From positions 1 through 34,359 of IMG/VR virus record IMGVR_UViG_3300022183_000026: 34,359 bases of DNA. The stretch is one strand, 5' to 3'. Source of the stretch: a virus. Its lineage: Duplodnaviria; Caudoviricetes. Positions 2,241 through 33,635 of the stretch are shown here, one piece after another (within the stretch, counting starts at the first letter, position 1; each line of letters starts with the position of its first letter). The notes below the pieces were generated by a model. The model had not been told where the DNA came from, made no database searches, and saw only the letters and a program-made list of their open reading frames with translations. The translations under genes were made by a program, and so were the position numbers.

Positions 2241-3077
2241 ATGACAGTAGGATCATTATTCAGCGGAATCGGCGGCTTGGACCTCGGCCTTGAGTGGGCG
2301 GGGTTTGAGACAAAGTGGTTCTGTGAAATTGAGCCGTTTCCGCGCAAGGTGCTAGAGAAGCATTGGCCGGGTGTACCAATAATAGAGGATGTGCGTGATG
2401 TCACAAAAGGAAATGTTCAACCAGTCGATGTCATCGTCGGTGGATTCCCATGCCAAGACATCTCATGGGCCGGTAAGGGGCGAGGAATTGATTACGACCT
2501 ATCTGGCAAGGAGGGAACCCGGTCTGGTCTTTGGTGGGAGATGTGGCGCGTCATACGCGATCTTCGACCCCGATACGTCATTGCTGAAAACGTACCAGCA
2601 CTCACTCATAGAGGACTCGACATTGTACTCGGAAGCCTTGCCCAAATCGGGTATGATGCGGAGTGGCAGACTATATCAGCGGCAAGCGTGGGTGCCCCGC
2701 ACATTAGAGAGCGAGTGTTCATTGTGGCCTACCCTTGCGGCATCAGATCACATGAGCCCATCTCCGGGTACGGCCATTCGGAAGTCGAATGGGCAGGATC
2801 GGGATTCGGGTGCGAAAATAGGATCTTCGATAAGGTGGGACGAAAGAATACTGAATTTGGCTCGCCGGACTTTTGGCCTTCCGGGGAATGGGATGCCCAC
2901 CTCGCGACAGATGCGTGTATCTCTGACATGGGCAGAAAACCACATGGGATTCCCGACTCATTGGACACGTATGGACACAGAACTAAAGGACTCGGAAATG
3001 CCGTAGTCCCGCAGGTCGGCTATTTGGTCGGCAGAGCTGTAATGGCACACGCATTCGCGCAAGCGGATAACCGTTAA
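2241..3077 (+). CDS. dcm: DNA cytosine-C5 methyltransferase, alpha polypeptide (motifs I-VIII and X)
   Basis: LFSGIGG (I), GGFPCQ (IV), ENV (VI), HIRERVF (VIII), GLGNAVVP (X); no motif IX in this frame. Confidence 0.95.
   Translation: MTVGSLFSGIGGLDLGLEWAGFETKWFCEIEPFPRKVLEKHWPGVPIIEDVRDVTKGNVQPVDVIVGGFPCQDISWAGKGRGIDYDLSGKEGTRSGLWWEMWRVIRDLRPRYVIAENVPALTHRGLDIVLGSLAQIGYDAEWQTISAASVGAPHIRERVFIVAYPCGIRSHEPISGYGHSEVEWAGSGFGCENRIFDKVGRKNTEFGSPDFWPSGEWDAHLATDACISDMGRKPHGIPDSLDTYGHRTKGLGNAVVPQVGYLVGRAVMAHAFAQADNR
2389..3006 (+). CDS. Nested +1-frame ORF: beta polypeptide of the C5-methyltransferase (TRD-like region and motif IX)
   Basis: 205 sense codons wholly inside dcm; carries LWPT and WAENHMGFPTHWT, a motif IX-like (E..RLQGFP) segment; same layout as M.EcoHK31I. 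Confidence 0.75.
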   Translation: MCVMSQKEMFNQSMSSSVDSHAKTSHGPVRGEELITTYLARREPGLVFGGRCGASYAIFDPDTSLLKTYQHSLIEDSTLYSEALPKSGMMRSGRLYQRQAWVPRTLESECSLWPTLAASDHMSPSPGTAIRKSNGQDRDSGAKIGSSIRWDERILNLARRTFGLPGNGMPTSRQMRVSLTWAENHMGFPTHWTRMDTELKDSEMP

Positions 3078-17489: not shown

Positions 17490-18133
17490 AGCGGGTTCCT
17501 CTTTCGTTCGTCGTAGTGCATTTGCGAATCATGTTCGCCGTGTTCATACAATGTATCACTTACCTGGCAGACACGCAAACCGGACCTCCAAAGCGCAAGG
17601 CTCATATACTTTCCAACGCCTGACGATGCGTTCGTACTGAAGTGTTCGGCAGGGATATGCGGGACTCGCCAAGACAGGGCTTCCAGTACGTCCCTACTAC
17701 ACGCAAAGCATCCGTCTACCCAATGCGTTAGCCAGCGTTCGCGTTCGTCTACGGGATCGACAGGCACCCAGCATGGGCCGCGTCCGCGCCCGTCAACAAG
17801 AGGCACTATCACATCACAGTGTTCAAGGTGCGACAGCATCCGTTCGACGGGGTTTGTCACAGCCGGGGTAACGTCATCGGGTAGGAATACAAACGTGTCG
17901 GCATCGGACTTGCGGCAGGAATCAAGAACGTGATCCCAGGTTTCGGCGAAGTGCCTGTGCCCCGGTGGTTTGTGCAGCGTGAATTGCAACGCATCAACAT
18001 GGTAGTAGGGCAGGCCCCCGCCGTCATGGAATACGTTTATGTCCGCGTCCGTTTCGTAGCGCGTCAGGTCCACAAGGCGGCGGCACATATCGGGCCGCTT
18101 GTAGGTGATGATTGATATTAGGAGGGAATCCAT
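17486..18133 (-). CDS. GT2-like glycosyltransferase
   Basis: LISIITYKRP, VFHDG, FVFLPDD motifs. Confidence 0.75.
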   Translation of the reverse strand: MDSLLISIITYKRPDMCRRLVDLTRYETDADINVFHDGGGLPYYHVDALQFTLHKPPGHRHFAETWDHVLDSCRKSDADTFVFLPDDVTPAVTNPVERMLSHLEHCDVIVPLVDGRGRGPCWVPVDPVDERERWLTHWVDGCFACSRDVLEALSWRVPHIPAEHFSTNASSGVGKYMSLALWRSGLRVCQVSDTLYEHGEHDSQMHYDERKRNPL

Positions 18134-18798
18134 ACGTGGGTAGCGGTTGCGTTGAATACTTTTGGCAGGCGCGTATGATCGGACAGAAGCCAGTCGGCTG
18201 TCTCTAGGTTCACGCGGTCTGTTTCTTCCATGATAACAAGGGGGCGGTGAATGGTTACGATACCCATGCTTGCTATTAGGGCGTGTAGCGACATTCCCTC
18301 TGCGTCGATCTTTATAGCCGTAGGCTTGAACGTGCCGATTACGTGCGCTAGGAAATGCCCCGTCTTTGTTAGTTCGTCCGCGCCCGCCCTTTCAAAGCGC
18401 GTCATGCCGACGTTGCCTTCGGGCGGCGGCACAAGGCGGTAGTCTATCTGCGGGCCTATCAGGTAGCCGCGCGTCTGCACCCTATCCCATAGGTTATTTG
18501 CGGACAGGTTCTTCTTTAGGTACTCGCCGTTTGCCGGGGCGGGTTCGATAGCAAACACCTTTGCCCCTAGCTCCCCCGCAAAGAAAACGGAATGATTCCC
18601 TAGACAGGCACCTACGTCCACGACACGTTCGAAGTATTGCGGGTTGTCGTATGCCCATCGCAACACGCCGCGTTCTCCGTATTCGTAGAAGTGCCCCGCT
18701 CGCCAGTGCCGCACCTGATGATCGCCCTCCGGTCCGTGCATAGCATAGACATTTCCTGACGGACCCTTTACGGGTATTGGGTTCGTATCAATCTTCAT
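18118..18798 (-). CDS. FkbM-family SAM-dependent methyltransferase
   Basis: VVDVGA.LGNHS, V.AIEP...N, IKIDAEG, RPLVIME. Confidence 0.9.
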   Translation of the reverse strand: MKIDTNPIPVKGPSGNVYAMHGPEGDHQVRHWRAGHFYEYGERGVLRWAYDNPQYFERVVDVGACLGNHSVFFAGELGAKVFAIEPAPANGEYLKKNLSANNLWDRVQTRGYLIGPQIDYRLVPPPEGNVGMTRFERAGADELTKTGHFLAHVIGTFKPTAIKIDAEGMSLHALIASMGIVTIHRPLVIMEETDRVNLETADWLLSDHTRLPKVFNATATHVWIPS

Positions 18799-26133: not shown

Positions 26134-28789
26134 TAAAAATGCCCTTGCTGATCTATCGGGCGGCTACTATTCCTATTGGACCGATGGAACGACAGAGGGC
26201 CGCGCTACGGTAGCGGTCCTTCTAGCGTCTACCGATGCACAGGCGGCGGCGGCTTCCTTTAGTAGCCTTGCGCTAGGCACAGACCTTGCCGTTTCGCACG
26301 GCGGCACGGGGGCAAGCACGGCGGCAGCGGCCCGAACTAACCTCGGCGTAGACGCGGCGGGTACAGATAACTCGACCGATGTAACGATTGCCGCCGGTCT
26401 GGACTATATCAGCATCGCGGGTCAGGAGTTAACGCTGGGGTCGGTAGATCTGACTACGGACGTAACCGGGGCATTGCCCCTTGCTAACGCGGCTTTTGCG
26501 GATCAGAACGTACTACAAGCGTCCTCCCCCACCTTTGCGGGGCTGACGGTGGACGGCGGGGCGGGTGATGCTGTAATAGATTTTGCGACAACTGGCGGGG
26601 CGGGAAGGGATTGGAAGATATTTAGCAACGGGTCGAACCTTTATTTTGACCTAGAGACAAACGCTGGTGCCTCTTGGTTTTTTAGGGCGTTCGATAACTC
26701 TAACGCGCTTTCGCTGACAACGGCGGGAGTTATGTCCGTCCTGAATAGTGTGACCATCGCCTCCGACCTCACCCTTGCTTCTGGCTCCATCACCTCTGCG
26801 AGTGGGGCGATATCGTTTGGGAATGAGAACCTGACCACTACGGGGACGCTTACTTCCGGCAATCACACAATTTCTAGTGGATACCTGTCAATCAGCAGGT
26901 CGGCACCATACATCTATTTTGAGGAAAGCGACCGCGTAGATGATAACTGGCGTCTGCTTGCTGACGGTGGCGTTTTTTACCTGTCGCAGATGGATGATGG
27001 GGAAGCCTTTTCTGCTCACGTTTGGAGCGTGGACGCATCTGGCAACCACGACTTTCAAGCAGGCAACATCACCACAACAGGGACAGCATCAACCGGGAGG
27101 CTTGATCTTGTAAACCCGTTTGCGATCTACGACAACCGCGCAAACAACATATTACAACAGAGCGCATCGACCCTTGCAACGGGACGAACGATTGACTTTG
27201 GCAACGCCACCTACTCGACGTTCAATTTCAATTTTGCCGCATCTGCCACTATTGATGCGGGTGATGCCAACCTCACCACCACGGGGGAGGCGTCTGTTGG
27301 TAGCCTCACGGTATCTACAAACGATGGTGCTGGCCCCGGTCAAATCGGATTCCTGTCAGACTTCCTCATCCTGCATGGTGGGGCAAATGGCCTGATAGTC
27401 AGGGACGATCAACAGAATAATAACTTGGTTATAGATGCCTCTGGGCACTTCGACTTCCAGAGCGGCAACATCACCACCACGGGCACCTTTTCGAGTGGCG
27501 CGGCAACGGTGACGGGCCTGACAGTTTCGACAGGCGATGTAACCCTTTCGGCGGGGGATCTGGTTCTTGGCTCGAACGACATGGAGATCCGTCACGATGG
27601 GTCACATGGACAGATTGATTCAATTACGGGCAGGCTTGATTTCTATGTTGGTGGCACCCGCTACAATGTGATGGACACAAGCGGGAATCTGATTCTCGGA
27701 GCCACCTCCACCTCCAACAACGCGCAGTTCTACGCGACCAAGACGTACAGCGCGGCGAGTGGGACGGATATTGGAGCGTACTTCAATTATGTTCAGGACA
27801 CCGCATCCGTAGATGGTTTCAGGGCGGTTCAAGGACAGGCGCGGTCAACTCACACTTCCGGCACTCTTGCTAATCTGATCGGCGTTTATGGATTCGCAAG
27901 AGCAAGCGGGGCTGGAGGAACAACTTCAAACGCCTACGGGCTTTATTCTGACGTTTGGAGTTCTGACGCATCATCAACAATAACCAATGCTTTTGGCCTG
28001 TACATTGTAGGATTCACCGCCACAGGCACCATCACAAACCGCTGGGGCATCTATCAGGCAGGCGCAAGTGAGTCCAACTACCTCGCAGGCCACCTCCGCA
28101 TAGGCACGACGAGCGCAACGAGTTACGGAGAGGCCCTACACGTAAGCACCGTTTCTGGATCGACACCCGCCGCCACATTCAAGGGCTACGAGTCAATAAC
28201 ATCCACCACCACGGCAAATGCTGGCGAAATCAGAGTAGGCGAAAACACATCGTTTCAAGGAAAGATATCATACACAGGCGCTACGACTGTGATGTATATC
28301 ACAAATACGTGGAATAACGGGAATGGCGACGTTGTGTTACGCACGGCTGGCAATACGAACACACTGGTAGCAAAGGGTTATGGATCGGTTCAGTTTCTTA
28401 ATGGCACGGTAGCCCTTCCGTCCATCGGATTTCAGAACGACGTAGACACCGGACTTTATATGCCGTCAACAGGCGTAATCGGTGCGGTTACCGCAGGCAC
28501 CGAACGCTTCCGCGTAGCCTCTGACGCCGCGAACCTAATCATTGGCGGCTCGGTTGACCCGGCAACTATGGACAGCGGCCTTGTCCTGACAACAGGCACA
28601 GCCCCAAGCGCAGGGGCCGCAGACGCCGTTGCCCTGTACTCTACTGACCTGTCGGCTGGCAACACCATGCTCGGTATCTACACCGAAGGCACACCCGTAG
28701 GGACAGGCACACCAACACAGGACCGCACCATTGCCGTAGAGGTTAACGGAACCACACTTTACCTTCTCGCATCAACATCAGCATCATAA
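26117..28789 (+). CDS. Long fibre-like virion protein (890 aa)
   Basis: L.V..GGTGA.TAA.AR.NLG fibre motif; repeated N(L/I)TTTG modules; PSI.F..D.DTG.Y...G.ER.R motif. Confidence 0.8.
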   Translation: MPTLPNKNALADLSGGYYSYWTDGTTEGRATVAVLLASTDAQAAAASFSSLALGTDLAVSHGGTGASTAAAARTNLGVDAAGTDNSTDVTIAAGLDYISIAGQELTLGSVDLTTDVTGALPLANAAFADQNVLQASSPTFAGLTVDGGAGDAVIDFATTGGAGRDWKIFSNGSNLYFDLETNAGASWFFRAFDNSNALSLTTAGVMSVLNSVTIASDLTLASGSITSASGAISFGNENLTTTGTLTSGNHTISSGYLSISRSAPYIYFEESDRVDDNWRLLADGGVFYLSQMDDGEAFSAHVWSVDASGNHDFQAGNITTTGTASTGRLDLVNPFAIYDNRANNILQQSASTLATGRTIDFGNATYSTFNFNFAASATIDAGDANLTTTGEASVGSLTVSTNDGAGPGQIGFLSDFLILHGGANGLIVRDDQQNNNLVIDASGHFDFQSGNITTTGTFSSGAATVTGLTVSTGDVTLSAGDLVLGSNDMEIRHDGSHGQIDSITGRLDFYVGGTRYNVMDTSGNLILGATSTSNNAQFYATKTYSAASGTDIGAYFNYVQDTASVDGFRAVQGQARSTHTSGTLANLIGVYGFARASGAGGTTSNAYGLYSDVWSSDASSTITNAFGLYIVGFTATGTITNRWGIYQAGASESNYLAGHLRIGTTSATSYGEALHVSTVSGSTPAATFKGYESITSTTTANAGEIRVGENTSFQGKISYTGATTVMYITNTWNNGNGDVVLRTAGNTNTLVAKGYGSVQFLNGTVALPSIGFQNDVDTGLYMPSTGVIGAVTAGTERFRVASDAANLIIGGSVDPATMDSGLVLTTGTAPSAGAADAVALYSTDLSAGNTMLGIYTEGTPVGTGTPTQDRTIAVEVNGTTLYLLASTSAS

Positions 28790-28792
28790 ACA

Positions 28793-29146
28793 TTGAGCAA
28801 CCGCAGAACAATACCGCCAGTTCCTGCGCCCGCCGATTGGCACAGCGCAAGATCATCGAAGTTCATCGTATACCGTGAGCCGCAGGACGATTCGTACCTA
28901 GACGGCAACGGCGACCTCGTACAACGTAGCAAGCGCATCGACATTGCAGGCGTTACCTTCATCGAAGAGGACGCACAGGGAAACGTGATTCCGCGCAACA
29001 CGGAAGGCTACCCGAACCTACTATCATTCAACCAGGACGAACTACGCGGCATAGCCCAGAACAATCCCGCCGTACTGACAGCATACCAGGAAGCAATTCC
29101 GAAACTAGCAGCCCTATGGGATGCCATTTATCAATCAATCAAATAA
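28793..29146 (+). CDS. Hypothetical protein (possible fibre assembly factor)
   Basis: TTG start immediately after the fibre gene. Confidence 0.6.
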   Translation: MSNRRTIPPVPAPADWHSARSSKFIVYREPQDDSYLDGNGDLVQRSKRIDIAGVTFIEEDAQGNVIPRNTEGYPNLLSFNQDELRGIAQNNPAVLTAYQEAIPKLAALWDAIYQSIK

Positions 29147-29159
29147 GTCACCAACTGAC

Positions 29160-29597
29160 ATGAAGATTACAAACGCACAAGCCATCAACATGGCAGCGAC
29201 ACTATCAGACGCAATCGAACCCGATGCCGTAGACAAGATGACGCACGACGAGAAGAACCGTTGCGTCTACCGCATGGGCAAGACCCACGGCAAACTGATA
29301 TCCGAAATGAAAGCATTCAACAAGCAAGACGAAGCCCTACGCGACGCCGCTATCAAGCGCGACAAGAAAGGCAACAAGGTCAAGGCACGGGTGAAGGACG
29401 AAGAGACGGGCGAATGGAAGGACTCCGAAACATCGTTTCAATGGGGTGACTTCGAAACGTATCAGACCGAACGCGGCAAACTGCTCGACGAAGAGATAGA
29501 GGTATACACGGTATCGTTCCCCCTAGAATGGCTTGAAGGCAACCCGCACCTCGGCGCACTCGCTTCGGCTTGCGCGGAGTTGATCGAAGATGAGTAA
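29160..29597 (+). CDS. Hypothetical protein
   Basis: MKITN... start; charged helical composition. Confidence 0.65.
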   Translation: MKITNAQAINMAATLSDAIEPDAVDKMTHDEKNRCVYRMGKTHGKLISEMKAFNKQDEALRDAAIKRDKKGNKVKARVKDEETGEWKDSETSFQWGDFETYQTERGKLLDEEIEVYTVSFPLEWLEGNPHLGALASACAELIEDE

Positions 29598-30078
29598 ACG
29601 CATCAAAATATCAGACCTGCACTTCGACCCGCAGAACGCCCGTGTCCGCACGGCGAAGGGTGAGGCCATGATTCAGGAGTCATTGCAGCAGGTCGGCGCA
29701 GCCCGCTCAATCGTCATTGATGAGAACGGCACCATCCTAGCAGGCAACGGCACCGTCGAAGCAGCCGGACAGATAGGCATCGACAACGTAGTGATCGTCG
29801 AAGCATCGGGCGACGAGATCATAGCGGTACGGCGCAAGGGGCTGACGGACGAACAAAAAAAGAAGCTGGCCTATTACGACAACCGCACGGGCGACGAAGC
29901 CGAGTGGGACATGGAGCAGGTGGCCCGTGACCTCTTGGGCGGCTATGACTTCCTCGACGAGTTGTTCGACGACATCGAAGTGCCCGACTTCGACCCGGTA
30001 GATGAATCGGAAATGGGTTCTTTAGATAAAGTAGGATTAATTGAATGCCCTAACTGTGGACACGAGTTCAAAAAATAA
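29590..30078 (+). CDS. ParB/Srx N-terminal domain protein with C-terminal CPxCG knuckle
   Basis: I.DL..DP.NAR, SL...G..RSIVIDE...ILAGNG..EAA, DNR.....WD; ends CPNCGHEF. Confidence 0.85.
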   Translation: MSKRIKISDLHFDPQNARVRTAKGEAMIQESLQQVGAARSIVIDENGTILAGNGTVEAAGQIGIDNVVIVEASGDEIIAVRRKGLTDEQKKKLAYYDNRTGDEAEWDMEQVARDLLGGYDFLDELFDDIEVPDFDPVDESEMGSLDKVGLIECPNCGHEFKK

Positions 30079-30700
30079 TGCTTTACGACTTGATTGGTGC
30101 AGCCATGAAGCGGCAAAGTTTGCCGTTATGCGGTGGCATTATTCAAAGACCATGCCCGCTGCCATGAAAAGAATAGGCGTTTGGGAGGGTGATCGTTTTG
30201 TTGGTGCTGTTTTGTATGGTCATGGTTCAGGTGGTAGCACGGATGGGAGAAAATACGGATTTGACAGGACAGGTCATATTGCTGAATTGGTGCGTGTTGC
30301 ACTTGCACCAAACCGCGTTCACAGCACAAGCAAAGTCGTTGCAATATCAATTAAAATGATTTCGAGATCGGACCGCGGTTTAAAAATGCTAATATCTTTT
30401 GCCGACTTTGCGGGGCAGGAACACATCGGGACCATTTACCAGGCAAGCAACTGGCTTTACATTGGCGAATACAATAGCAGTGGCAACTGCATCATTAATG
30501 GAGAAGAAGTTCATCCAAGAACTGTCGGTGCCAGATATAAAAGCAGGTCCATTGAATATCTAAGAAAACACGTAGATCCAACTGCATACTATGTGAAAAC
30601 AATTAAACACAGGTACGCATATCCGCTTTGCAAAGAAGCTCGCAAAGTACTTGAAGGGATGGCACAACCATACCCCAAAAAACAAGCGCAGGTAGTGTAA
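30041..30700 (+). CDS. mom: Mom-family DNA adenine hypermodification enzyme (GNAT-like)
   Basis: WHYS, G.WE...FVG.V.YG, EL.R.AL, LISFAD....H.GTIYQA.NW.Y.G, KHRY.Y.L, PYPK motifs; start (TTG 30041 or GTG 30056) uncertain. Confidence 0.85.
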   Translation: MNALTVDTSSKNNALRLDWCSHEAAKFAVMRWHYSKTMPAAMKRIGVWEGDRFVGAVLYGHGSGGSTDGRKYGFDRTGHIAELVRVALAPNRVHSTSKVVAISIKMISRSDRGLKMLISFADFAGQEHIGTIYQASNWLYIGEYNSSGNCIINGEEVHPRTVGARYKSRSIEYLRKHVDPTAYYVKTIKHRYAYPLCKEARKVLEGMAQPYPKKQAQVV

Positions 30701-30755
30701 TGGTAGCACGGCCTACATCCAGTAGGCAAGAGGGGTTCGAATCCACCCCTGCGCT
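30686..30755 (+). tRNA. Atypical tRNA-Gly(TCC), overlapping the mom stop codon; CCA not encoded
   Basis: Acceptor GCGCAGG/CCTGCGC plus U73; D arm GTGT-AATGGTA-GCAC; anticodon arm GCCTA-CATCCAG-TAGGC; T loop TTCGAAT; imperfect T stem GGGG/CCACC. Confidence 0.85.
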
Positions 30756-30776
30756 CAAAAATGTAACGGTATAAAA

Positions 30777-31103
30777 ATGGCATACGAAAAAGATCAATTT
30801 ATCAAGGCGATAGAGAACAGCGGCGGGTACGTTTCGCTGATCGCTGACCGCGTTGGATGTGCGCCAAAAACCGTTTACGATTGGATCAACAAGAACGAAG
30901 ACGTAGCCGACGCGATCAAACGCGAAAAGGTGAAACAGGTGGACTTTGCCGAAGGCAAGCTTCAATCCCTCATAAAGAAGGAGAACCCCACGGCGATCAT
31001 ATTCTATCTAAAGACACAGGGTAAGGGCCGGGGCTACGTGGAACGCCAGGAAGTAACCGGACCCGATGGGCACCCTTTAATGTTCAAGTGGCAGGATGAT
31101 TGA
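30777..31103 (+). CDS. terS: Terminase small subunit (HTH)
   Basis: A....G.VS.IA..VG....TVY.W, D.AE..L...I......AIIFYLKT.GK.RGY.E; precedes TerL. Confidence 0.85.
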   Translation: MAYEKDQFIKAIENSGGYVSLIADRVGCAPKTVYDWINKNEDVADAIKREKVKQVDFAEGKLQSLIKKENPTAIIFYLKTQGKGRGYVERQEVTGPDGHPLMFKWQDD

Positions 31104-32271
31104 ACGATTAAGCATATACAAACCAGCAGCGGAAACGACCGCGCACTACCGCGTCCTCGGCGGCGGGGCCGGGTCGGGCAAGTCTGTGTTTATCGCCCAG
31201 GATCTACTTCGTTCATCGGCAGAGGACGGCAAGCGCATCCTTGTCATTCGTAAGACGGCCCGCACCCTGCGTCATTCAACCCATCAGCTGTTCGTCGATA
31301 TCATATCTGAGCTGGGCCGCACCCACATGGTGAAGATCAACAAGGTGGAAATGCGGTTCGACTTCCCTTCGGGCGGTTCGATATTGCAGGTCGGCCTTGA
31401 CGATCCCGAGAAGATCAAGTCTATCGCCGAGATTGACGAGGTGTGGATTGAGGAAGCGACCGAGATAAAGAAACAGGAGTTCCAGCTTGTAGACATTCGC
31501 CTTCGCGGTGAGGGAAAGAAGCGCATCACGGTCACGTTCAACCCGTCCGTCAAGGCGAAGTGGATTCGCCGCTACCTTGTCGAACGCACCGACGAGGACA
31601 GCCCGCACGAGGAAGATGTTTACGTTCAGTTCACTACCGCCCTTGATAACCCGTTCGCCGGGGAGGACTACTTCAAGCGGCTAGAGAACCTGCCACCGAG
31701 CCTTCGTGATGTATACGCATACGGCAAGTGGGGCGAAGCCCTAGAGGGCCTGATCTACACCGACGTTACCTACACGGACGAGCCGTGCGTTCCTGCGTTC
31801 TACGGCCTTGACTTCGGCTTTAACAACCCGTCGTGCCTGATCGCCTGCCAGGACCTAGACCCGGTGATGCGCGTTGATGAACTGCTATACGAACGGGGGC
31901 TGACGAACAGCGACCTGATAAGGAAACTAGAGCGTCTGGTGCCGGACAAAGACATACCGATATACTGCGATGCGGCTGAACCGGCTAGGATCGAAGAAAT
32001 AATCAGGGCCGGGTTCAATGCCCGCCCTGCCGACAAGTCCGTTAAAGACGGCATAGACACGGTGAAGCGCTATACCCTAGAGGTGACGAGGGGAAGCCAG
32101 AACCTAACGAACGAGGTCCAAGAGTACAGGTGGGACGAGGACCGCAAGACGGGCGACCTATCGGATGAGAAGCCCGTCAAGCACAACGATCACGGCATGG
32201 ACGCTATGCGTTATGCCATCCATACTGAACTATCAACGGCACACGCGACATGGGGCCTCTGGGGAGCGTAA
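31096..32271 (+). CDS. terL: Terminase large subunit, PBSX family
   Basis: GGAGSGKS Walker A, VWIEEATE Walker B, TFNP, GLDFGF, H.MDA.RYA. Confidence 0.95.
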   Translation: MIERLSIYKPAAETTAHYRVLGGGAGSGKSVFIAQDLLRSSAEDGKRILVIRKTARTLRHSTHQLFVDIISELGRTHMVKINKVEMRFDFPSGGSILQVGLDDPEKIKSIAEIDEVWIEEATEIKKQEFQLVDIRLRGEGKKRITVTFNPSVKAKWIRRYLVERTDEDSPHEEDVYVQFTTALDNPFAGEDYFKRLENLPPSLRDVYAYGKWGEALEGLIYTDVTYTDEPCVPAFYGLDFGFNNPSCLIACQDLDPVMRVDELLYERGLTNSDLIRKLERLVPDKDIPIYCDAAEPARIEEIIRAGFNARPADKSVKDGIDTVKRYTLEVTRGSQNLTNEVQEYRWDEDRKTGDLSDEKPVKHNDHGMDAMRYAIHTELSTAHATWGLWGA

Positions 32272-33635
32272 AACCTGACTTATACGTAATGGGATCATCC
32301 CAAAAGGGCTTGTCGCTCAAATACTGGCAAGCCTGGGTAGATGCCCTCGACGGCGACTTTGACGGCGATAAGCCCGATATGACCGTGCAGCAAGCCTTCT
32401 CGAAAGAAGGTTGGTTTCGCCGTTGTATCGACGTACGCGCATCGTCACTCGCCGCTATGCCGTGGGAGATCATCCCGCTCGGATCGGAAGACCCCGCCTG
32501 GGTATCGGGCGAAGGGTCGCCGGAGCCGTGGGAGTGGTTTCATGCTGATGACTACCTATACCGCACCGCAGCCGCCCTAACGCTTACAGGGCACAGCGTA
32601 GCGCAGAAGGAGGGGACGCTGAACAAGGATATGCGCTACCCGTCGCTTGAGGCGGTAGACAACCTGAAGCACTACAACCCGCTAACGATCAAGCCCGAAT
32701 ATGAAAAGGGAGAATACGGCCCCGACGAAATGGGCAATTTCCGATACTTCTGCCGCACCGTTTCGGGACACAAGTACCACATACACAGGGATTCCGTCGT
32801 TTACGTCTTCCAGCCTGACCCGTTCACGGAGCAGGGTTCGGGGTCAAGCATCGGCGAAGCGGCGCGTCAGCAGGCGCAAGTCCTCTTCGATATGGGCGAC
32901 TTCACATCGGATCAGCTACGTAGTGGCCTGCCTAAGAAGGTGGTCTTTGTCGCTGACAAGGATGCTCGGCAACCGAACGAAGAGCAGCTAAAGAAGTGGC
33001 AGCGATGGATTCAACGCCACATCTTAGGCGCAAAGGGAACGCCGCCGGAAGTGATGCAAGGCCTCGACACGAAGGAGATAGGGTCAAGCCTATCGGACCT
33101 GCACAGCGAAGCGATTACGAAGGATGCCCGCGAAGCCGTAGCCTCTAGCCTCGGCATTCCGCATTCCCTGATTATGTCGAACGCGGCAAACTTCGCTACC
33201 GCGCAGGCCGACCAGTTAAACTTTTATACAACTACGATCATACCGCAGGCGAAGCTGATTCAGCACAACCTGAATGCCCAGTTCATGCGCGAAGTAGGTT
33301 TCAAGTTTCAGTTCCGTCCCGACAAGCTAGAAGTCTTCCAGGCTTACGAGCTAGAGAAGGCGCAGGGTTTGATTGCCTTGACGGGCGGCAAGCCTGTGCT
33401 GACGCAGGATGAAGCGCGTGAGCGCGTAGAAGCGGACCCGCTAGGGTACGATGACCTAGACGTAGTGCGTCAGAACGACGTTAAGAACTGGACTAAGAAG
33501 ATCGAACGGGTCGGGCGCGACTGCGACTTCGAACCGCTCGGCCTCAATGACACAGAGGCTGGCGTGATCCGCGAACGCCTTGCCGCAGGGAAATCATTAG
33601 ACAAGGTGTTTAGCCCGCCCTACGCGGATTTTTAG
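32250..33635 (+). CDS. Portal protein (start may be ATG 32289)
   Basis: Follows TerL; RCID.RA...A.MPW, A..LGIP.SL....AN.ATA, FY..TIIP, LT.DEARE. Confidence 0.9.
   Translation: MGPLGSVKPDLYVMGSSQKGLSLKYWQAWVDALDGDFDGDKPDMTVQQAFSKEGWFRRCIDVRASSLAAMPWEIIPLGSEDPAWVSGEGSPEPWEWFHADDYLYRTAAALTLTGHSVAQKEGTLNKDMRYPSLEAVDNLKHYNPLTIKPEYEKGEYGPDEMGNFRYFCRTVSGHKYHIHRDSVVYVFQPDPFTEQGSGSSIGEAARQQAQVLFDMGDFTSDQLRSGLPKKVVFVADKDARQPNEEQLKKWQRWIQRHILGAKGTPPEVMQGLDTKEIGSSLSDLHSEAITKDAREAVASSLGIPHSLIMSNAANFATAQADQLNFYTTTIIPQAKLIQHNLNAQFMREVGFKFQFRPDKLEVFQAYELEKAQGLIALTGGKPVLTQDEARERVEADPLGYDDLDVVRQNDVKNWTKKIERVGRDCDFEPLGLNDTEAGVIRERLAAGKSLDKVFSPPYADF

Follow-up and report, generated by a model that had tools for sequence, protein, structure and literature searches.

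Why should a phage gene for a DNA-modifying enzyme end inside a tRNA-like RNA? The question is raised by IMG/VR record IMGVR_UViG_3300022183_000026 (G000), hereafter the window: the whole stretch of 34,359 nt (34.4 kb) that was analysed, a complete-looking tailed phage with head, tail, tape-measure and lysis genes. On its + strand, a mom-like gene (30041-30700) overlaps a tRNA-Gly(UCC)-like RNA (30686-30755). The Mom protein of phage Mu moves glycine from Gly-tRNA-Gly onto N6 of deoxyadenosine (dA), and a rearrangement then gives the carbamoylmethyl derivative 6-NcmdA (PMC13219725). That source documents the glycyl donor that the initial annotation of the locus had named. We show that this element is real, adopts an RNA fold and is linked to mom at about 200 loci. 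From comparative evidence, we consider it probable that the RNA is a host-charged glycyl donor for Mom, shielded from EF-Tu and the ribosome.

The mom-like gene and its overlapping RNA

The last codons of the mom open reading frame (ORF), GCG CAG GTA GTG TAA, are at the same time the 5' end of a 70-nt cloverleaf with anticodon TCC; the stop codon TAA (30698-30700) occupies element positions 13-15. Sequence, ARAGORN and Rfam model RF00005 agree on this arrangement, which the initial annotation had described, and its claim of a single tRNA in the genome holds as well. For the whole window ARAGORN calls one tRNA, tRNA-Gly(tcc) at 30686-30756, and RF00005 has its sole match in the record at 30686-30755 (39.7 bits, cut-off 29). 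The family covariance model R1, in whose training alignment the window element is one of 44 rows, gives 62.2 bits at the same positions and no other match in the window.

All six bacterial glycyl-tRNA synthetase (GlyRS) identity features are present: G1-C72, C2-G71, G3-C70, U73, C35 and C36, the set given for bacteria in Table 1 of PMC9976931. The acceptor stem is GCGCAGG/CCTGCGC, and CCA is not encoded (the next bases are CAA). Of the canonical elongator features, the element keeps U8, A14 and G18G19, with an intact D arm, as well as T54-U55-C56 and A58; it is without U33 (A33 instead), an open 7-nt anticodon loop and an uninterrupted 5-bp T stem. The anticodon stem GCCTA/TAGGC carries the loop C32 A33 U34 C35 C36 A37 G38, in which C32 and G38 pair with probability 1.0. 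The T arm, GGGG-TTCGAAT-CCACC, has four pairs and a bulged A (30745), most relatives having five pairs, and cmscan marks two non-standard pairs in this stem. The overall fold is more stable than those of dinucleotide-shuffled sequences (z -2.55), of which 2 in 200 match it; the fold with A30745 bulged lies 0.1 kcal/mol from the minimum free energy, its four T-stem pairs reaching a probability of only 0.22. The identity set, A33 and the pairable C32-G38 are thus in the sequence as first noted. The T-stem defect is real too; to judge by the family, it consists of an A bulged at a distance of two pairs from the acceptor junction and not of a simple 51-63 mismatch.

In two samples, each a possible source of this DNA, the contigs of four DNA runs have no variant letters here and give no independent support. 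Other contigs of the same runs share the element's 3' part (30711-30760), including the 4-bp bulged T arm, and differ in the anticodon stem and flanks: they are sibling viruses with the same T-arm variant.

Could this simply be a translating phage tRNA-Gly(UCC), placed beside mom by chance or offsetting the drain of Gly-tRNA by Mom? ARAGORN and Rfam both call it a tRNA, the window copy keeps U8, A14, G18G19 and TTC, and offsetting a drain would explain a linkage to mom too. On the other side stand A33, C32-G38 and the 4-bp bulged T stem of the window copy, together with codon usage: GGA accounts for just 134 of the 820 Gly codons in 39 ORFs, a count on which we rejected the codon-supplement idea. 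The family data given below bear on the same point.

The protein is a new member of the known Mom family, predicted to be a GNAT-fold DNA adenine glycyl (carbamoylmethyl) transferase. It matches PF25680 at 148.9 bits (E 1.9e-43; curated cut-off 27.1; profile positions 2-202 of 202) and phrog_1384 at E 5e-43, in agreement with the Mom identity assigned initially. Its start codon is either the TTG at 30041, which has an AGGA 4 nt before it, or the GTG at 30056. By sequence, Mu Mom (8bv8) is the only significant solved relative (phmmer E 5.7e-10). The AlphaFold2 (AF2) model, with a pLDDT of 90.4 and helix-turn-helix (HTH)-like insertion helices at 147-165, retrieves 8bv8 at rank 1-2 in Foldseek (E 1e-12, TM score 0.70). 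Counting residues from 30077, with an inferred offset of 9 to Mu numbering, R111, S124, D149, H58, Y59 and Y159 of Mu Mom correspond to R73, S85, D110, H21, Y22 and Y121 (roles of the Mu residues compared here are from PMC13219725). All of these are invariant in 37 homologs except S85. Mu R151, W48 and W181 are not kept, the aligned positions being A112, E11 and E; an H116 invariant in the 37 homologs lies near A112. Mu Mom stops at its YPK motif. Past this motif, most of 120 listed homologs extend about 25 residues further than the window protein, and these C-terminal tails of many Mom proteins appear to be translated RNA.

Linkage to mom and conservation as RNA

Do other mom genes carry the element? 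A viral scan with a single sequence gave no relatives; an alignment query found homologs, and 240 homologous mom loci were analysed along with those of cultured phages. Dropping 15 of 245 loci, without a C-terminal anchor or 200 nt downstream, left 230. Of the 230, 168 have a cloverleaf-like element at the 3' end of mom according to a parser that considers pairing only, blind to identity bases (score of at least 15), against 0/230 for shuffles and 2/230 for in-gene windows. A refined parse raises this to 172, and the covariance model adds 32 among the remaining 58. Linked tRNA-Gly-like elements, expected in the initial annotation to flank Mom homologs, are thus found at 204 of the 230 loci.

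The reverse test agrees. Here viral contigs were chosen solely by a bulged T-arm pattern or by a canonical one, and loci with less than 600 nt upstream were set aside (45/120 and 52/122). Mom is present in 72 of 75 bulged-T-arm loci and in 0 of 70 canonical ones (95/120 and 0/122 in the whole sets); the pattern misses the window's own 4-bp variant, and at least five reverse matches are contigs also in the forward set. Two of the three exceptions still have a Mom or a Mom-like protein nearby: in L315 Mom is one gene further away, and L301 has an adjoining Mom-like GNAT (phrog_1384 E 5e-5). The third, L354, holds an apparent deleted mom remnant. In 21 reverse matches the RNA stands in front of mom, so it follows mom and not the terminase small-subunit gene (terS). 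One sub-pattern of the family alone occurs in an estimated 1,400 or so IMG/VR stretches, and ARAGORN detects only 24 of 127 family members.

The linkage points to Mom as the consumer of the RNA. That the RNA carries glycine for some other phage enzyme, such as the ParB-like protein or a further modifier, or induces the glyQS T-boxes of the host, is a quite improbable alternative. In its favour, 29 of 30 loci have a ParB-like gene on the upstream side, and a glycosyltransferase-like gene stands between mom and the RNA in L315. Yet the RNA remains next to mom where it precedes the gene, and ParB-mom pairs exist without RNA (phiEf11). As for T-boxes, a free position 34 and a degenerate elbow, both found in the family, would suit their reading poorly. 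Mom, moreover, is the sole neighbour with a known Gly-tRNA requirement (PMC13219725).

Several loci depart from the common layout. The front-of-mom elements (L337, L338, L345, L361, L364, L369 and others) lie a few bases before mom, have a bulged T stem, mostly keep U8 and U33 and often have a long anticodon loop. In L354 (1504-1650), ParB is followed by the first dozen mom codons fused to a damaged element, an apparent internal mom deletion. The order mom, glycosyltransferase-like gene (no named family match), RNA, terS is found at L315:1561-2868 and G001:16763-17359, and multi-step base modification is possible there. Elements stand back to back in L368, L126 and the tail of protein P0089, mom is apparently doubled in L080 and L171, and an element of a Bifidobacteriaceae metagenome-assembled genome (L108:3084-3194) has an intron-like insertion of about 38 nt in its middle.

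Conservation was counted in 128 distinct elements and 67 canonical viral tRNA-Gly controls (34 of 122 control loci did not parse). Among the elements L217 and L244 are parsed off by one base, and L109 and L183 have a shifted loop. The mom stop lies after the element in 99 cases, inside it in 24 and before it in 5, so that 123 of 128 overlap coding sequence, and the overlap uses all three frames (48/47/33). A conserved-peptide reading was rejected on these grounds. In an alignment of 44 sequences, 97.7% of cells are paired, compared with 36-42% in slid controls; two-sided compensatory changes occur in 18 of 22 pairs, in all four helices, and positions 32-38 covary (C-G 20, U-A 8, A-U 4, G-C 4). 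On the element strand, G-U outnumbers A-C by 54 to 8. The G-U excess, the compensatory changes and the use of three frames argue for selection on an RNA, and not on a peptide or DNA.

These data bear directly on whether the element is a decayed tRNA, an integration-site relic or a DNA hairpin serving as a packaging signal before terS. Such an origin would suit its position, 21 nt before terS here and with terS next in 20 of 30 loci, and phages often acquire tRNA fragments. Compensation in every helix, fixed identity bases, the G-U bias, CCA encoded in 77 of 128 elements, a position tied to mom and not terS, and no integrase among the 38 window ORFs scanned leave it scarcely credible.

Which tRNA features are kept, and which are lost? 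The GlyRS set is nearly fixed: G1-C72 and C2-G71 each in 126 of 128, G3-C70 in 123, U73 in 124, C35 in 124 and C36 in 125, with C35C36 jointly in 123/128 elements and 64/67 controls. Marks that serve translation vary instead. U33 is present in 39/128 elements vs 66/67 controls, U8 in 18/128 vs 62/67 and A38 in 28/128 vs 67/67; A34 is found in 61/128 vs 2/67, and the ACC anticodon in 58/128. Positions 32 and 38 form a Watson-Crick pair in 110/128 elements and 26/67 controls, all U-A in the latter; C-G, G-C or A-U stands there in 87/128 elements and 0/67 controls. The T stem is bulged in 113/128, the extra base being an A at the site two pairs off the acceptor junction in nearly every case; TTC is kept in 44 and the D stem is missing in 47. 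At least one of six non-canonical marks is found in all 128 elements and at least two in 124, compared with 6/67 and 1/67 controls; two of the six are fixed by the controls' search pattern, which sets TTC and the T-arm length and thereby predetermines these two contrasts. Canonical phage tRNA-Gly (RF00005) resemble the window element in cloverleaf and Gly identity set, and its 39.7 bits exceed their cut-off. They differ from the mom-linked family in their near-invariant U33, A38 and U8, and lie near mom in 0 of 122 cases.

The decay is therefore not random, as had been anticipated: acceptor identity and C35/C36 are nearly fixed, U33, position 34, U8, the T loop and the D arm vary, with covariation in the stems. 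A Mom tree of 227 rows gives 4, 3 and 3 changes at positions 35, 36 and 73, and 76 and 52 at positions 33 and 34. For acceptor pairs 4-7 it gives 46-66 changes, in which both partners almost invariably change at once. These counts are rough, the FastTree phylogeny being poorly resolved (78 of 212 branches open). A translating role for the RNA is very unlikely in the light of the marks carried by all 128 members and of the 58 ACC anticodons, even though front-of-mom forms are nearer canonical (U33 in 5 of 6 distinct parsed).

The D region is short in 70 of 169 parsed loci, and on the same rough tree the D arm switches state up to 24 times. Forms of about 66 nt without a D arm and with degenerate T loops (L005, L018, L038, L051 and others) resemble animal mitochondrial tRNAs. 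Three loci (L109:3097-3173, L183:1797-1873, L039:about 2104-2180), a methanogen chromosome and two related contigs, combine Mom with a tRNA-Gly-like RNA that has the A73 discriminator of archaeal type, no T-stem bulge and a 6-7 nt loop on a 6-bp stem. In the first, the Methanobacterium ferruginis chromosome, A73 of the mom-adjacent element is shared by both host tRNA-Gly genes seen, as if the element tracked its host. These A73 elements suggest Mom-type modification in archaeal viruses.

A proposed glycyl donor for Mom, and what weighs against it

We propose the following pathway. The RNA would be transcribed together with ParB, mom, terS and terL, probably late in infection to judge by gene order. 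Its maturation would rely on RNase P of the host, trimming at the 3' end and the addition of CCA, the last being needed for the window copy with no CCA of its own. Host GlyRS would then charge it through the six fixed identity features. In the peer-review file of the Mu study, the authors argue that the anticodon is out of Mom's reach (PMC13219725), and the fixation of C35 and C36 therefore points to charging by GlyRS. A bulged A among pairs 49-65, 50-64 and 51-63, a closed 32-38, the lost U33 and the free position 34 would make for poor EF-Tu binding and no decoding; the bulge and the closed loop in particular suggest exclusion from translation. By homology to Mu Mom, the enzyme would transfer the glycine to N6-dA to give 6-NcmdA, which would guard the DNA against restriction before it is packaged. 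The phage would gain a supply of Gly-tRNA exempt from EF-Tu sequestration.

A precedent exists in Staphylococcus aureus, where EF-Tu sequesters Gly-tRNA and thereby inhibits FmhB; non-proteogenic tRNA-Gly escape through weak first T-stem pairs, which give relief, and have 5-nt anticodon loops (PMC7826273). The simplest reading of the mom-linked family would be the same logic in a virus.

The RNA may instead act on the enzyme. As a regulator or decoy it would bind Mom, charged or not, and restrain a host-toxic activity, or its excision would remove the mom stop and limit Mom synthesis. The overlap with coding sequence (99 elements wholly inside, 24 holding the stop) lends itself to this, as 5' processing would cut the mom message; the acceptor end is read by Mom (PMC13219725), and D-armless forms may be poorly charged (PMC10464925). 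Against it, C35 and C36 are nearly fixed although the anticodon is argued to lie beyond Mom's reach, the RNA stands in front of mom in the 21 reverse matches, and it lies outside the coding sequence in phages B2_17 and Appa. We regard a regulator as unlikely, though not negligible, and the two roles can coexist.

A number of observations weigh against the donor proposal itself, beginning with the comparative nature of all its support. On the substrate side, all three E. coli tRNA-Gly isoacceptors serve Mu Mom, and Gly-tRNA-Ala is rejected, i.e. the tRNA body is read (PMC13219725); because it is, acceptor conservation could reflect Mom binding alone, without charging. The window copy is also a milder variant that keeps U8, G18G19 and TTC. 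Concerning charging, D-armless tRNA-Gly is a very poor substrate for L. plantarum GlyRS, which favours purine 4-pyrimidine 69 and an intact L shape (PMC10464925). Pyrimidine 4 is found in 90/128 elements vs 5/67 controls, the window's C4-G69 included, there with an intact D arm; the preference is that of one enzyme only. Since pyrimidine 4 and a short D region clash with these preferences, charging of the elements may proceed slowly or depend on the host. The A73 case is one clade (L109, L183, L039), and the GlyRS of A. pernix can do without A73 (PMC9976931). Our literature search gave no paper testing a T-stem bulge against EF-Tu. In the protein, the Mu-essential R151 is absent at the aligned position.

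Nor is the element universal. It is missing from 26 of 230 loci, including Yersinia/Serratia prophages, actinomycete prophages and phiEf11; the family model finds it in none of the 10 Mu-type loci searched (of 45 such loci), and among 8 remoter mom loci of cultured phages, 7 have none within 800 nt. The dedicated glycyl carrier of the initial annotation is thus supported by the comparative pattern, but not as a general need of Mom enzymes: the Mu enzyme is without an element and uses three isoacceptors (PMC13219725).

A bolder version of the donor proposal, which we put forward only tentatively, is that of a widespread two-part viral system. The enzyme gene would encode its own cofactor RNA, which the host would charge and translation would pass over, and for which this Mom clade would select positively via the bulged-A T stem. 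The family of stripped tRNA-Gly mimics would extend to the D-armless forms of about 66 nt without a canonical elbow. As the RNA overlaps the gene end, a given transcript would supply either the enzyme or its donor RNA, which would fix their ratio.

Known systems and gene neighbourhood

How does the locus compare with known systems? With Mu Mom (PF25680, phrog_1384, 8bv8; PMC13219725), the window protein shares the GNAT fold with HTH-like insertion, the YPK end, the equivalents of H58, Y59, R111, S124, D149 and Y159 and, as predicted, Gly-tRNA-dependent adenine modification. Structural identity is 27%, and R151, W48 and W181 are not kept. In Mu, com lies upstream, there is no tRNA-like element and host isoacceptors are reportedly scavenged; here the order is ParB-mom-RNA-terS-terL.

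Staphylococcus NP1-NP3, donors for FmhB, FemA and FemB (PMC7826273), resemble the window RNA in GlyRS identity, the 5-nt anticodon loop, weakened first T-stem pairs and service to a GNAT-fold transferase instead of the ribosome, the last being our prediction for the phage. They are chromosomal, confined to staphylococci and devoted to peptidoglycan, and are weakened by A-U pairs (A49-U65, U50-A64, A51-U63). The family described here, in contrast, is viral or prophage-borne, overlaps the enzyme gene, has a bulged A and free positions 33 and 34, and is often D-armless; the T stem of the window has G-C pairs plus the bulged A, and a staphylococcal-type A-U stem is absent. The mom-linked RNA would thus act like a staphylococcal non-proteogenic tRNA-Gly, yet is not a member of that group, and we claim no common ancestry.

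Among cultured phages, Salinibacter phage B2_17 (OR896349) has a mom homolog followed by a same-strand tRNA-Gly, as here (family model 92.4 bits). Microbacterium phage Appa (NC_047972) has a tRNA-Gly(CCC) 32 nt after mom (46.1 bits) that is on the opposite strand and keeps U33. Both records annotate this neighbour as a plain tRNA-Gly and leave its link to mom unstated. In the cultured Marthavirus Arthrobacter phage Zartrosa, an unannotated element (L162:2595-2665) lies at the mom end (50.6 bits). A mom homolog occurs in 23 Arthrobacter phage records, and Zartrosa is a tractable model.

We found no report of a mom-linked tRNA-like family in the literature searched, which was mostly non-subscription and did not extend to the main supplement of PMC13219725, where the linkage could be mentioned. 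On term look-up, neither the Mom paper and its preprint nor a review of jumbo phages mentions one, and the Rfam scan gave no such family.

The 2026 Mom mechanism paper describes a phage that scavenges host tRNA-Gly (PMC13219725); here a large Mom clade would bring a rebuilt donor RNA of its own. If true, this is a rare dedicated non-ribosomal aminoacyl-tRNA outside staphylococcal cell-wall synthesis, and a virus-encoded one, with a bearing on how a transferase obtains aminoacyl-tRNA despite EF-Tu sequestration. ARAGORN overlooks most of the family, whose hundreds of natural variants separate the determinants of GlyRS from those of EF-Tu and the ribosome and could serve in designing translation-orthogonal aminoacyl carriers. 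The cultured phages B2_17 and Zartrosa, which are not phages of pathogens, make the donor idea testable.

The gene order on the + strand (29590-33635) is ParB-like, mom-like, tRNA-like RNA, terS, terL, portal. The ParB-like gene (29590..30078; 162 aa, C-terminal CxxC, phrog_620 E 5.7e-26) overlaps the mom start, and its family is the upstream neighbour in the 29 of 30 loci already mentioned, sampled from 112 upstream ORFs. Downstream lie the HTH-type terminase small subunit (30777..31103; phrog_309 E 6e-9), its family counted in 30 loci sampled from 97 downstream ORFs, and the large subunit (31096..32271; PF04466 E 1.3e-42). The placement between ParB-like and terminase genes agrees with the first description, as does the joint Mom-tRNA locus; the span assigned to the latter, 29590-30760, was too wide and takes in the ParB-like gene. 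A promoter and terminator scan of 28700-31200 gave no signal above chance and none on the + strand.

Within the ParB-mom overlap (30041-30078), the ParB-like stop follows TTC AAA AAA, with mom in the +1 frame. Frame offsets of the upstream ORF to mom among 112 loci are 76/34/2. Because the two are almost never in frame, translational coupling appears likelier than a conserved frameshift.

The GC content of mom is 0.45, against about 0.55. Recent transfer was considered as a cause and rejected, as in 88 of 109 loci the gene upstream of mom is less AT-rich than mom itself (mean difference 4.6 points; window mom span 30050-30700). Elsewhere in the window, a DNA methyltransferase (phrog_363) and a methyltransferase-like gene (phrog_8156), at 2241-3077 and 18118-18798, point to layered modification.

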